Origin: Escherichia coli
GTDB lineage: Bacteria > Pseudomonadota > Gammaproteobacteria > Enterobacterales > Enterobacteriaceae
Length of the DNA stretch: 3,000 nucleotides
NCBI RefSeq assembly: GCF_003334385.1
Contig: NZ_QOWN01000097.1
Reading direction: 5' to 3' (one strand)
This document shows, piece after piece, positions 1-3,000 of the stretch (within the stretch, counting starts at the first letter, position 1; the number at the start of each line of letters is the position of its first letter). The translations under genes were made by a program, and so were the position numbers. The notes under the pieces are model-generated. The model saw nothing but the letters and a program-made list of their open reading frames with translations. It was not told the origin of the DNA and searched no databases.

Positions 1-3000
1 ACGCTGGCGCGGCTGTGGGGGGCGCTGCCGCCGGATATCCGGTTAAGCCCGCATCTTTACCTGGCGACCAACAGCGCACAGGGGCCGTGGTGGATACTGG
101 GGTGGTCTGAGCGGGTGCCGGGTGCTGAGGACGTACTGCCAGCGCCGCTGCCGCCGTACCGGGTGCTTACCGGGATGGCGGACCGCTTCGGGCGGACGCT
201 GACGTACCGGCGTGAGGCCGCCGGTGACCTGGCCGGGGAAATCACCGGCGTGACGGACGGTGCCGGGCGGGAGTTCCGTCTGGTGCTGACCACGCAGGCG
301 CAGCGTGCGGAAGAGGCCCGCACCTCTTCGCTATCTTCTTCTGACAGTTCCCGCCCTCTCTCAGCCTCAGCGTTCCCCGACACACTGCCCGGTACCGAAT
401 ACGGCCCCGACAGGGGTATCCGCCTTTCGGCGGTGTGGCTGATGCACGACCCGGCATACCCGGAGAGCCTGCCCGCTGCGCCACTGGTGCGGTACACGTA
501 TACGGAAGCCGGTGAACTGCTGGCGGTATATGACCGCAGCAATACGCAGGTGCGCGCTTTCACGTATGACGCGCAGCACCCGGGCCGGATGGTGGCGCAC
601 CGTTACGCGGGAAGGCCGGAGATGCGCTACCGCTACGACGATACGGGGCGGGTGGTGGAGCAACTGAACCCGGCAGGGTTAAGCTACCGCTATCTTTATG
701 AGCAGGACCGCATCACCGTCACCGACAGCCTGAACCGGCGTGAGGTGCTGCATACAGAAGGCGGGGCCGGGCTGAAACGGGTGGTGAAAAAAGAACTGGC
801 GGACGGCAGCGTCACGCGCAGCGGGTATGACGCGGCAGGAAGGCTCACGGCGCAGACGGACGCGGCGGGACGGAGGACAGAGTACGGTCTGAATGTGGTG
901 TCCGGCGATATCACGGACATCACCACACCGGACGGGCGGGAGACGAAATTTTACTATAACGACGGGAACCAGCTGACGGCGGTGGTGTACCCGGACGGGC
1001 TGGAGAGCCGCCGGGAATATGATGAACCGGGCAGGCTGGTATCGGAGACATCGCGCAGCGGGGAGACAGTACGCTACCGCTACGATGACGCGCACAGTGA
1101 GTTACCGGCGACGACAACGGATGCGACGGGCAGCACCCGGCAGATGACGTGGAGCCGCTACGGGCAGTTGCTGGCGTTCACTGACTGCTCGGGCTACCAG
1201 ACCCGCTATGAATACGACCGCTTCGGCCAGATGACGGCGGTCCACCGCGAGGAAGGCATCAGCCTTTACCGCCGCTATGACAACCGTGGCCGGTTAACCT
1301 CGGTGAAAGACGCACAGGGCCGTGAAACGCGGTATGAATACAACGCCGCAGGCGACCTGACTGCCGTTATCACCCCGGACGGCAACCGGAGCGAGACACA
1401 GTACGATGCGTGGGGAAAGGCGGTCAGCACCACGCAGGGCGGGCTGACGCGCAGTATGGAGTACGATGCTGCCGGACGTGTCATCAGCCTGACCAACGAG
1501 AACGGCAGCCACAGCGTCTTCAGTTACGATGCGCTGGACCGGCTGGTACAGCAGGGCGGCTTTGACGGGCGGACGCAACGTTATCATTATGACCTGACCG
1601 GAAAACTCACACAGAGTGAGGATGAGGGACTTGTCATCCTCTGGTACTACGATGAATCGGACCGTATCACTCACCGCACGGTGAACGGCGAACCGGCAGA
1701 GCAGTGGCAGTATGATGGCCACGGCTGGCTGACAGACATCAGCCACCTGAGCGAAGGCCACCGTGTTGCCGTCCACTATGGCTATGACGATAAAGGCCGC
1801 CTGACCGGCGAATGCCAGACGGTGGAGAACCCGGAGACGGGGGAACTGCTGTGGCAGCATGAGACGAAACACGCATACAACGAGCAGGGGCTGGCAAACC
1901 GCGTCACGCCGGACAGCCTGCCGCCGGTGGAGTGGCTGACGTATGGCAGCGGTTACCTGGCGGGAATGAAGCTGGGCGGGACGCCGCTGGTCGAGTATAC
2001 GCGGGACAGGCTGCACCGTGAGACGGTGCGCAGCTTCGGCAGCATGGCAGGCAGTAATGCCGCATACGAACTGACCAGCACATACACCCCCGCAGGCCAG
2101 TTACAGAGCCAGCACCTGAACAGCCTGGTATATGACCGTGACTACGGGTGGAGTGACAACGGCGACCTGGTGCGCATCAGCGGCCCGCGACAGACGCGGG
2201 AATACGGCTACAGCGCCACGGGCAGGCTGGAGAGTGTGCGCACCCTCGCACCAGACCTGGACATCCGCATCCCGTATGCCACGGACCCGGCGGGCAACCG
2301 GCTGCCGGACCCGGAGCTGCACCCGGACAGTACACTCACAGTGTGGCCGGATAACCGCATCGCGGAGGATGCGCACTATGTCTACCGCCACGATGAATAC
2401 GGCAGGCTGACGGAGAAGACGGACCGCATCCCGGCGGGTGTGATACGGACGGACGACGAGCGGACCCACCACTACCACTACGACAGCCAGCACCGCCTGG
2501 TGTTCTACACGCGGATACAGCATGGCGAGCCACTGGTCGAGAGCCGCTACCTCTACGACCCGCTGGGACGGCGAATGGCAAAACGGGTCTGGCGGCGGGA
2601 GCGTGACCTGACGGGGTGGATGTCGCTGTCGCGTAAACCGGAGGTGACGTGGTATGGCTGGGACGGAGACAGGCTGACGACGGTGCAGACTGACACCACA
2701 CGTATCCAGACGGTATACGAGCCGGGAAGCTTCACGCCGCTCATCCGGGTCGAGACAGAGAACGGCGAGCGGGAAAAAGCGCAGCGGCGCAGCCTGGCAG
2801 AGACGCTCCAGCAGGAAGGGAGTGAGAACGGCCACGGCGTGGTGTTCCCGGCTGAACTGGTGCGGCTGCTGGACAGGCTGGAGGAAGAAATCCGGGCAGA
2901 CCGCGTGAGCAGTGAAAGCCGGGCGTGGCTTGCGCAGTGCGGGCTGACGGTGGAGCAACTGGCCAGACAGGTGGAGCCGGAATACACACCGGCGCGAAAA
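1..3000 (+). CDS. Rhs family protein (RHS/YD-repeat polymorphic toxin core), internal fragment; both the start and the stop lie outside the window
   Basis: Frame +1 is uninterrupted by stop codons for all 1000 codons (my manual translation, line by line). The translation carries many copies of the Rhs/YD motif (Y-x-Y-D-x-x-G-R-L/V), e.g. [13 protein letters not shown] (nt 625-663), [12 protein letters not shown] (1207-1242), [13 protein letters not shown] (1267-1305), [10 protein letters not shown] (1582-1611), [12 protein letters not shown] (1777-1812), [14 protein letters not shown] (2377-2418), [12 protein letters not shown] (2548-2583). The window starts [20 protein letters not shown] and ends ...[15 protein letters not shown], with [26 protein letters not shown] at 2737-2814. 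GC content is high with GC-rich third positions, as known for Rhs cores. Paralog (rhsA/B/C/D-like) cannot be determined from the core alone, so the gene symbol is left empty. Confidence 0.95.
490..2694 (+). repeat. YD-repeat (RHS repeat) array at the protein level within the Rhs CDS; about 25-28 degenerate units of roughly 20-25 residues, not a nucleotide tandem repeat
   Basis: Recurring Y-x-Y-D / YD-x-x-G-R-L motifs in frame +1, at approximately aa 164-178, 189, 209-221, 229-238, 276-286, 318-326, 340-346, 359-362, 403-414, 423-435, 445-453, 468-473, 488-496, 509-516, 528-537, 549-556, 571-577, 593-604, 709-726, 735-745, 793-806, 825-836, 850-861 and 885-898. Unit boundaries are approximate and read by eye. 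Confidence 0.75.

Follow-up and report, generated by a model that had tools for sequence, protein, structure and literature searches.

Can short exact direct repeats that encode the peptide motif of a toxin shell serve as end points of deletions in natural Escherichia coli genomes and, if so, what kind of event removes the DNA between them? The question is raised by a 3,000-nt stretch of E. coli DNA (the whole of which is hereafter called the window), for which an earlier note had proposed that dispersed identical 9- to 14-mers could mediate in-frame deletions or duplications of repeat blocks.

Identity of the window: the rhsD core

Sequence identity assigns the window to the rhsD core of E. 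coli; the encoded YD repeats form the beta-cocoon of a polymorphic toxin. Nucleotide identity to annotated rhsD is 100% for strain SCU-104 and 99.9% for K-12, and the NCBIfam RHS_core equivalog model matches the window with 2173.5 bits (cut-off 2000) over model positions 154-1156 of 1261. Multiple YD repeats (TIGR01643 / PF05593) are present, visible as a series of Y-x-Y-D and G/D-R-L motifs, and the YD_repeat_2x model is matched in six stretches (E = 6e-49). The motif series is common to the window and K-12 RhsD (Rhs element core protein, NCBIfam NF041261; rhsDE subfamily), from which we found no substantial difference; that is, the window is an ordinary rhsD allele. The coding region is as follows.

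1..3000, + strand: internal rhsD core ORF, frame +1, stop-free, covering RhsD residues 154-1153 of the YD-repeat beta-cocoon shell

Solved structures of Rhs cocoon homologues include Tse5 (8cp6), Rhs (7q97) and Tse15. An Rhs core is expected to close with its RHS-associated core domain, after which come a toxin tip, which is variable, and an immunity gene. The genomic context in related strains is ybbP-rhsD-ybbC, as mapped at the K-12 locus, and in full-length relatives the region 3′ of the window equivalent carries PF03527 and DUF4329, with an Imm-NTF2-2 gene downstream. The antisense ORFs of the window are taken as the usual by-product of coding DNA with 64% G+C.

Inventory of direct repeats

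Repeat positions were obtained by exact string search of the window, and the features that matter for what follows are listed here.

625..638, + strand: 14-mer CGCTACCGCTACGA, copy 1, encoding R-Y-R-Y-D in frame +1; internally two tandem CGCTAC units
1072..1085, + strand: 14-mer CGCTACCGCTACGA, copy 2, encoding R-Y-R-Y-D in frame +1, 447 nt (149 codons) 3′ of copy 1
683..692, + strand: third copy of GCTACCGCTA, encoding S-Y-R-Y
928..937, + strand: 10-mer CCGGACGGGC, copy 1, encoding P-D-G; left edge of a recurrent 63-nt one-repeat deletion
991..1000, + strand: 10-mer CCGGACGGGC, copy 2, extended match 15/16 nt; right edge of the 63-nt deletion
1030..1038, + strand: GGCAGGCTG, encoding G-R-L with Arg as AGG
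2221..2229, + strand: GGCAGGCTG, G-R-L, AGG, which is retained in rhsA/B/C
2401..2409, + strand: GGCAGGCTG, G-R-L, AGG, likewise retained in rhsA/B/C
2005..2013, + strand: GACAGGCTG, encoding D-R-L with Arg as AGG
2668..2676, + strand: GACAGGCTG, D-R-L, AGG
2872..2880, + strand: GACAGGCTG, D-R-L, AGG
2562..2666, + strand: 10-mer pair GCTGGGACGG (2562-2571 and 2657-2666), flanking a deletion of 95 nt that shifts the frame in strain TW10690
375..412, + strand: 8-mer pair CCCCGACA (starting at 375 and 405), flanking a 30-nt in-frame deletion in a Ser-rich linker in strain DEC5B
2466..2477, + strand: tandem CACTAC CACTAC, encoding H-Y-H-Y; one 6-nt unit is missing in strain E700025

The 14-mer occurs at 625 and 1072 and nowhere else in the window, and both copies lie in frame +1 and encode R-Y-R-Y-D(D), the two positions and the peptide agreeing with the earlier note; the string search also returned the third copy of its ten-letter core at 683-692, the three starts of GCTACCGCTA being 626, 683 and 1073. 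The 9-mers had been described as GRL-encoding, which is true of the three copies of GGCAGGCTG, whereas the three copies of GACAGGCTG encode D-R-L. Their positions stand at 1030, 2221, 2401 and 2668, while the sites given as about 1999 and as 2869 are in fact 2005 and 2872. No tandem array was reported in the window by Tandem Repeats Finder (minimum score 30), and searches of the window for Chi sites and for Rfam families returned nothing.

The 14-mer pair is allele-specific. That is, other rhsD-like alleles, as well as rhsA/B/C, lack the pair: site 2 reads CGGTATGCTTATGA in other alleles, and in rhsA/B/C just 8 nt are common in register.

Chance and coding constraint

A longest repeat of at least 14 nt was reached in 4% of mononucleotide shuffles of the window and in 29% of synonymous-codon shuffles, in which protein and codon usage are held fixed. 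The 14-nt exact repeat is thus unusual against random sequence but not unusual given the protein and its codon usage. Furthermore, of the 38 maximal exact repeats of at least 10 nt, 31 have a spacing divisible by 3 (p = 1e-9), from which it follows that coding drives the repeats. The shorter words show an additional effect: the window holds 158 pairs of 9-mer repeats against 90 +/- 13 in synonymous shuffles, and the two G/D-R-L 9-mers occur three times each where about 0.2 would be expected by arithmetic from the peptide and gene-wide codon counts. The excess of the G/D-R-L words arises because the rare AGG codon occupies 7 of the 10 [G/D]RL motifs but just 3 of the 93 Arg codons elsewhere (p = 7e-7), so the peptide and gene-wide codon usage do not fully explain these 9-mers.

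Natural deletions bounded by the repeats

Public genomes were surveyed as a sample drawn from 22,008 copies: about 100 copies were aligned, 120 protein clusters were covered and predicted junctions were queried, seven for deletions and two for duplications. In-frame indels bounded by the repeats, which the earlier note had suggested looking for in population genomes, do exist at the 14-mer. The rhsD gene of E. coli R18 consists of window positions 1-638 (100% identity) fused to 1072-3000 (99.84%), and the two parts overlap by exactly the 14-mer CGCTACCGCTACGA. The missing segment is given below.

639..1085 (equivalently 625-1071), + strand: segment missing from R18 rhsD, 447 nt, with a single 14-mer copy left at the junction

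The deletion is in frame and corresponds to 149 aa, or about seven YD repeats. The allele comes from a complete genome with a finished circular chromosome, its 1277-aa ORF is intact and there is no N at the junction. It is the sole full-length match to this junction among about 5,660 copies (5,664 places) in 3,526 genomes, and a metagenome scan gave no match to the R18 junction, against 91 for the wild-type site. Homology around the 14-mer ends sharply, with 16/17 nt matching and noise beyond. As a separate observation, the R18 protein is automatically annotated as 'DUF4329 domain-containing protein', the RhsD name being lost in deletion alleles.

A second deletion is recurrent. The 63 nt between the two CCGGACGGGC 10-mers, amounting to one repeat, are missing from eight complete genomes and two metagenome contigs, with the ORFs intact, on two allelic backgrounds and at two loci. 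The carriers include MRE162 (three substrain assemblies), two O111:H8 strains, DAM, ANT and VTB97584v, all of them finished circular chromosomes with N-free junctions. Homology of the 928/991 pair is limited to 15/16 nt. In MRE162 and O111:H8 the rhs gene concerned is vgrG-linked. Up to nt 927 the O111:H8 deletion copy has the SNPs seen in undeleted alleles, and its identity to the MRE162 deletion allele is just 95.8%, which points to an independent origin and thereby, on these sequence comparisons, to the 63-nt deletion having arisen at least twice.

Further events were of mixed kind. A 186-nt deletion (three YD units) has its junction within the 8-nt word TACGATGC (Y-D-A), and the 95-nt deletion between 10-mers in TW10690 causes a frameshift, the gene being annotated as a pseudogene. 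Exact repeats in direct orientation flank the lost segments at 625/1072, 928/991, 2562/2657 and 375/405, and in the natural products (R18, MRE162, O111:H8, DAM and others, as well as TW10690 and DEC5B) one repeat copy is kept and the interval is exactly missing. Little or no microhomology was present at about half of the block deletions (276 nt in LR890603.1, 193 nt in L046 and two in L098), so the short repeats are not the sole route.

The proposal that the repeats mediate deletions therefore stands for the 14-mer and for other motif-encoded repeats (63 nt and 186 nt), but its duplications were not encountered: duplication junctions across the 14-mer and across 928/991 had no match in 5,426 complete genomes. 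Nor did the remaining named words yield a deletion junction in the same 5,426 genomes, the queries being two of the 15 possible G/D-R-L pairs (1028/2219 and 2403/2670) and 626/683, one pair with the third GCTACCGCTA copy; the 206/734 deletion junction was likewise without a match there. The pairs with deletions are spaced by 63, 95 and 447 nt, and the queried pairs without by 57, 267, 528 and 1191 nt. Deletion alleles were found in at most 0.3% of genomes (R18 type in 1 and 63-nt type in 8 of about 3,500), and the deletion-variant protein clusters are singletons, compared with some 10,000 members in normal-length clusters.

Several candidates were set aside. Apparent block changes in P0090 (L014) and P0111 (L018) have an N precisely at the junction, and P0023, P0028 and P0035 (L021-L023), Shigella sonnei proteins named 'core with extension', go with contigs that carry Ns and scaffold-like self-repeats; all were regarded as artefacts. 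The 567-nt duplication of P0002 (L017), with 0-nt microhomology on a 5.7-kb draft contig, was set apart, as were P0089 (L013), a 435-nt deletion on a draft contig that has 6 nt of overlap (TTAACC) and coincides with the K-12 rhsE truncation border, and P0005, a protein without a contig on record. More generally, several public 'Rhs core with extension' or duplicated-core proteins look like scaffolding artefacts.

How the deletions may arise

The repeats are most probably a passive by-product of coding for the YD motif, between whose copies DNA is deleted by rare misalignment, sporadically and with no evolved mechanism. The peptide words R-Y-x-Y-D, G/D-R-L and P-D-G recur about every 21 residues and are spelled with the same favoured codons, so that short exact in-frame direct repeats arise. 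These are then open to rare misalignment, as short direct repeats of E. coli DNA in general are, with RecA-independent replication slippage or template switching as the most likely route. Misalignment would remove the DNA between two copies and leave one copy and, since the two copies hold equivalent positions within the peptide repeat, the product would be in frame and lack a whole number of YD units. In natural alleles the units lost number seven at the 14-mer (once), one at the 10-mer pair and three at the 8-mer.

The closest parallel is found in short-homology deletions of E. coli. In lacI, Albertini et al. reportedly described in 1982 a deletion hot spot at a 14-of-17-bp repeat. Short direct repeats also recombine independently of RecA in E. 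coli, and such events form an established category (PMC5426353). As in that category, including lacI, the rhsD deletions involve exact direct repeats of 8-14 nt lying tens to hundreds of nt apart, one repeat copy is kept while the interval is lost, and the longest repeat in the window is among the sites used. What differs is the source of the rhsD repeats, a periodic peptide motif, which keeps most events in frame and makes them losses of entire structural units; moreover, independence from RecA is presumed in the case of rhsD. The gene, the motif and the mutational mechanism are all already known.

The most serious alternative, though one we consider improbable, is RecA-dependent homologous or homeologous recombination, in which out-of-register YD units pair within the gene or between paralogues and are resolved in an identical patch. 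E. coli genomes carry a median of six core copies, chimeric cores are present at the rhsE locus, and DAM and VTB97584v carry the same deletion allele at two loci, which suggests transfer between paralogues. Nevertheless, RecA needs homology of about 25-50 bp or more, and the 16/17 nt around the 14-mer and the 15/16 nt of the 10-mer pair fall far below that length.

Less credible still is the notion that the deletion alleles are artefacts of assembly or annotation and the repeats without any consequence. R18 is a singleton, and single Ns do lie at junctions in the draft assemblies L014, L018 and, for Shigella sonnei, L021-L023; however, the R18, MRE162, O111:H8, DAM, ANT and VTB97584v alleles come from finished chromosomes free of such Ns, and two metagenome assemblies independently contain the identical 63-nt junction. 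Moreover, assembler k-mers are longer than 10-14 nt, so that repeats of this size should not cause collapse.

Just as slight a chance is given to a more far-reaching proposal, by which either the Rhs cocoon tolerates the loss of one YD hairpin (possibly more) and microhomology provides recurrent, selectable variation in shell size, or AGG at the G/D-R-L turn is a programmed translational pause aiding folding of the beta-hairpin spiral, with the identical 9-mers a mere side effect.

Least plausible of all is that the microhomologies are maintained, in the manner of contingency loci, for the benefit of resizing or switching off the YD cocoon: the one-repeat deletion does recur on two backgrounds with the ORF intact, and owing to AGG-CTG at G/D-R-L there are more identical 9-mers than expected from codon usage, but the 14-mer pair is missing from other alleles and paralogues, deletion alleles are very rare and form singleton clusters, core length differs by just 33 nt between subfamilies at 77% identity, the queried duplication junctions and G/D-R-L pairs gave no match and there is no tandem DNA array.

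Known tandem-repeat surface proteins and contingency loci also lose whole repeat units in frame, but there near-identical DNA repeats lie head to tail and change at high frequency, whereas rhsD has no array and its variants are rare.

The name of the family calls for a separate comment, given that the repeats had been thought to fit 'rearrangement hot spot' on a small scale. They do not, as the term 'rhs' was introduced for an unequal crossover, dependent on recA, between the elements rhsA and rhsB, and the original phenotype is now considered artefactual (PMC2935791). Both phenomena involve recombination between repeated rhs sequence, but the classical hot spot relies on long whole-element homology and doubles the stretch of chromosome that lies between two loci, whereas in rhsD junction homology is 8-14 nt within one gene, not kilobase-scale, and ends abruptly, and 63-447 nt are removed; the scale and presumably the enzymes differ. 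The repeat deletions in rhsD are, in all likelihood, ordinary and rare accidents of slippage, unrelated to the kb-scale RecA-dependent crossovers behind the rhs name. Taken as a whole, the interpretation offered in the earlier note is partly supported.

Significance

The overall significance is small. Still, rhsD offers a natural illustration of how a periodic peptide motif leads to in-frame microhomologies and these to whole-unit deletions in a toxin-shell gene, and the deletion of a single repeat, which recurs and leaves the ORF intact, provides a ready test of how far the Rhs cocoon can be shortened.

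Short repeats in the rhsD core

The window, which corresponds to RhsD residues 154-1153, is free of stops in frame +1 across all 3000 bases (35 and 43 stops in the other two forward frames) and is identical at the nucleotide level to rhsD of E. coli SCU-104 (100%) and nearly so to K-12 rhsD (99.9%). Its translation scored 2173.5 bits, where the NCBIfam RHS_core equivalog sets a cut-off of 2000, and matched the YD-repeat model in 6 stretches; solved relatives with Rhs beta-cocoons include Tse5 (8cp6), Rhs (7q97) and Tse15. Of 5,426 complete E. coli genomes, 3,872 carry related cores, at 22,008 places. 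The window contained no family in an Rfam search and no nucleotide tandem array in a tandem-repeat search. All strings listed as repeats in the earlier note were located by exact string search, although two G/D-R-L coordinates given there (1999 and 2869) were wrong, the true positions being 2005 and 2872, and GACAGGCTG, which had been read as encoding G-R-L, encodes D-R-L.

Short repeats (exact string search) and AGG codons (codon count) in the window
625 and 1072, + strand: 14-mer CGCTACCGCTACGA, R-Y-R-Y-D-D at both
683, + strand: GCTACCGCTA, third copy
1030, 2221 and 2401, + strand: GGCAGGCTG
2005, 2668 and 2872, + strand: GACAGGCTG, encodes D-R-L
841, 1033, 2008, 2224, 2404, 2671 and 2875, + strand: AGG codons at [G/D]-R-L motifs

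These repeats are beyond chance relative to random sequence, but largely not relative to the right null, in which protein and codon usage are fixed; an exact repeat of at least 14 nt arose in 29% of such synonymous shuffles. The spacing was a multiple of three in 31 of the 38 maximal repeats of at least 10 nt (p = 1e-9), a pattern characteristic of a recurring peptide written with favoured codons. Two features do exceed the synonymous null, namely the total of 9-mer pairs (158 observed versus 90 +/- 13 in the shuffles) and the recurrence of the G/D-R-L 9-mers (each 3 times, versus about 0.2 expected). The latter is due to a preference for the rare Arg codon AGG, used in 7 of 10 [G/D]RL motifs versus 3 of the 93 Arg codons elsewhere (p = 7e-7). 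This preference, weaker in K-12 rhsA/B/C (3 of 10), is the sole oddity left. The 14-mer pair is not conserved: other alleles of 94-95% identity carry CGGTATGCTTATGA at site 2, and rhsA/B/C have only 8 nt in register in common with the pair. Window 1066-1094 is a mosaic patch, in which alleles 94-95% identical overall differ strongly (CGGTATGCTTATGATAAT versus CGCTACCGCTACGATGAC); this suggests that paralogues have exchanged sequence in patches.

Deletions bounded by short repeats

A protein search, from which Rhs cores with a register change in their alignment to the window were picked out, yielded a database protein (P0079) from which exactly 149 residues are missing. E. coli R18, a strain from sputum (Taiwan) with a finished chromosome, carries its gene at the ybbP-rhsD-ybbC locus. 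The gene aligns to window 1-638 (100%) and 1072-3000 (99.84%), pieces that overlap by exactly the 14-mer. The 447-nt deletion removed about seven YD units and left a 1277-aa ORF. Thus the prediction that in-frame indels bounded by the 14-mer would occur in population genomes came true once: a junction query designed so that ordinary copies match at most 90% of it hit 5,664 places in 3,526 genomes, of which R18 was the only one with the junction. In metagenomes, the R18 junction had 0 matches and the wild-type site 91, and a junction query of the 5,426 complete genomes found no reciprocal duplication across the 14-mer. The R18 allele (record L024, 3431-7264) is auto-annotated as 'DUF4329 domain-containing protein', not RhsD.

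About 100 copies, from 91 metagenome loci and genome samples, were aligned for indels. One YD unit (63 nt) was deleted between the CCGGACGGGC 10-mers at 928 and 991 in two gut-metagenome contigs and 8 complete genomes, namely MRE162 (three substrains), DAM, ANT, VTB97584v and two O111:H8 strains (records for window 928-1000: L116-L119, L043, L082). It occurs at vgrG-linked and ybbP-linked loci alike, with every ORF intact. Up to nt 927, one base short of the repeat, the O111:H8 allele has the SNPs of undeleted alleles, and its identity to the MRE162 deletion allele is only 95.8%; together these features indicate that the deletion arose at least twice, and its two allelic backgrounds point to independent recurrence. 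No reciprocal duplication across 928/991 was found by junction query of the 5,426 complete genomes.

Further events comprised a 186-nt in-frame deletion of three units whose junction falls within TACGATGC (Y-D-A), seen in a contig of 4.78 Mb, a 95-nt frameshifting deletion between GCTGGGACGG 10-mers, whose host gene is a pseudogene, a 30-nt deletion between CCCCGACA 8-mers and a 6-nt loss in tandem CACTAC CACTAC. Little or no microhomology was seen at a 276-nt deletion (LR890603.1), a 193-nt deletion (L046) and two deletions in L098. Junction queries of the 5,426 complete genomes revealed no deletion junction for the G/D-R-L pairs 1028/2219 and 2403/2670, the 12-mer pair 206/734 or the third-copy pair 626/683. 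The proposal that the repeats mediate in-frame indels therefore holds once for the 14-mer and several times as a general idea, but not for duplications or the tested G/D-R-L pairs, and the events do not make the gene a 'hot spot'; the earlier interpretation thus has partial support.

Small indels are found mainly in a Ser-rich linker (window 320-408, with an 18-letter stretch), where 21 of 104 sequences carry the 9-nt insertion TAAACAGCR, a 30-nt deletion also occurs, and the rhsA/B/C subfamily has a different length. A frame-shifting 7-nt tandem duplication (ACGGTGA) at window 1678 was present in 6 metagenome contigs.

Artefacts and rearranged cores at other loci

Apparently duplicated or deleted cores in draft assemblies (L014, L018 and Shigella sonnei L021-L023) were discarded, as a single N lies exactly at the junction (L014 2566, L018 1278; also L021-L023). 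Scaffolding errors probably explain the database entries named 'rhs core protein with extension [Shigella sonnei]'. Another protein, P0095 (117 index blocks; many strains), is encoded by a 5'-truncated core at the rhsE locus, on the yncG-yncH side (L019/L020 2948-5898), in which window 1091-2447 (95.6% identity) is joined, in frame and out of register, to another core, a diverged one equivalent to window 1432-3000 (81%). In the K-12 rhsE pseudogene, the 5' border (L011 1391-1413) reads ..CGCTTAACC|ACCCTCAGCC. This border reappears in draft contig L013 (2310-2335), where rhsD-like sequence ending ..GGCCGGTTAACC (window 1299) is joined to the same ACCCTCAGCC; the overlap is 6 nt, and 435 nt are lost on balance.

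Mechanism and significance

Lost segments were bounded by short exact direct repeats, one copy being kept at each such junction, and homology beyond the repeat ended abruptly at the deletion junctions. Comparison of alleles shows that at least one repeat-bounded event has recurred independently. Deletions between short direct repeats in E. coli were reportedly described by Albertini et al. in 1982. Misalignment during replication, independent of RecA, is the most probable route for the rhsD deletions. Because the repeats lie at the same phase of the roughly 21-residue peptide period, the products are in frame and short of whole units. A RecA-independent class of recombination between short direct repeats is established in E. 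coli (PMC5426353). The suggested fit to the rearrangement-hot-spot name of the family fails, since 'rhs' was coined for recA-dependent unequal crossover between rhsA and rhsB elements (PMC2935791), a process different from the small rhsD deletions; moreover, Jackson et al. regarded that crossover phenotype as artefactual (PMC2935791).

Neither the gene nor the motif nor the mutational mechanism is new. Subfamilies with 77% identity differ in core length by just 33 nt, and deletion-variant protein clusters are singletons where normal-length clusters have ~10,000 members. Both observations speak for rare accidents, subject to purifying selection, and against an evolved device.
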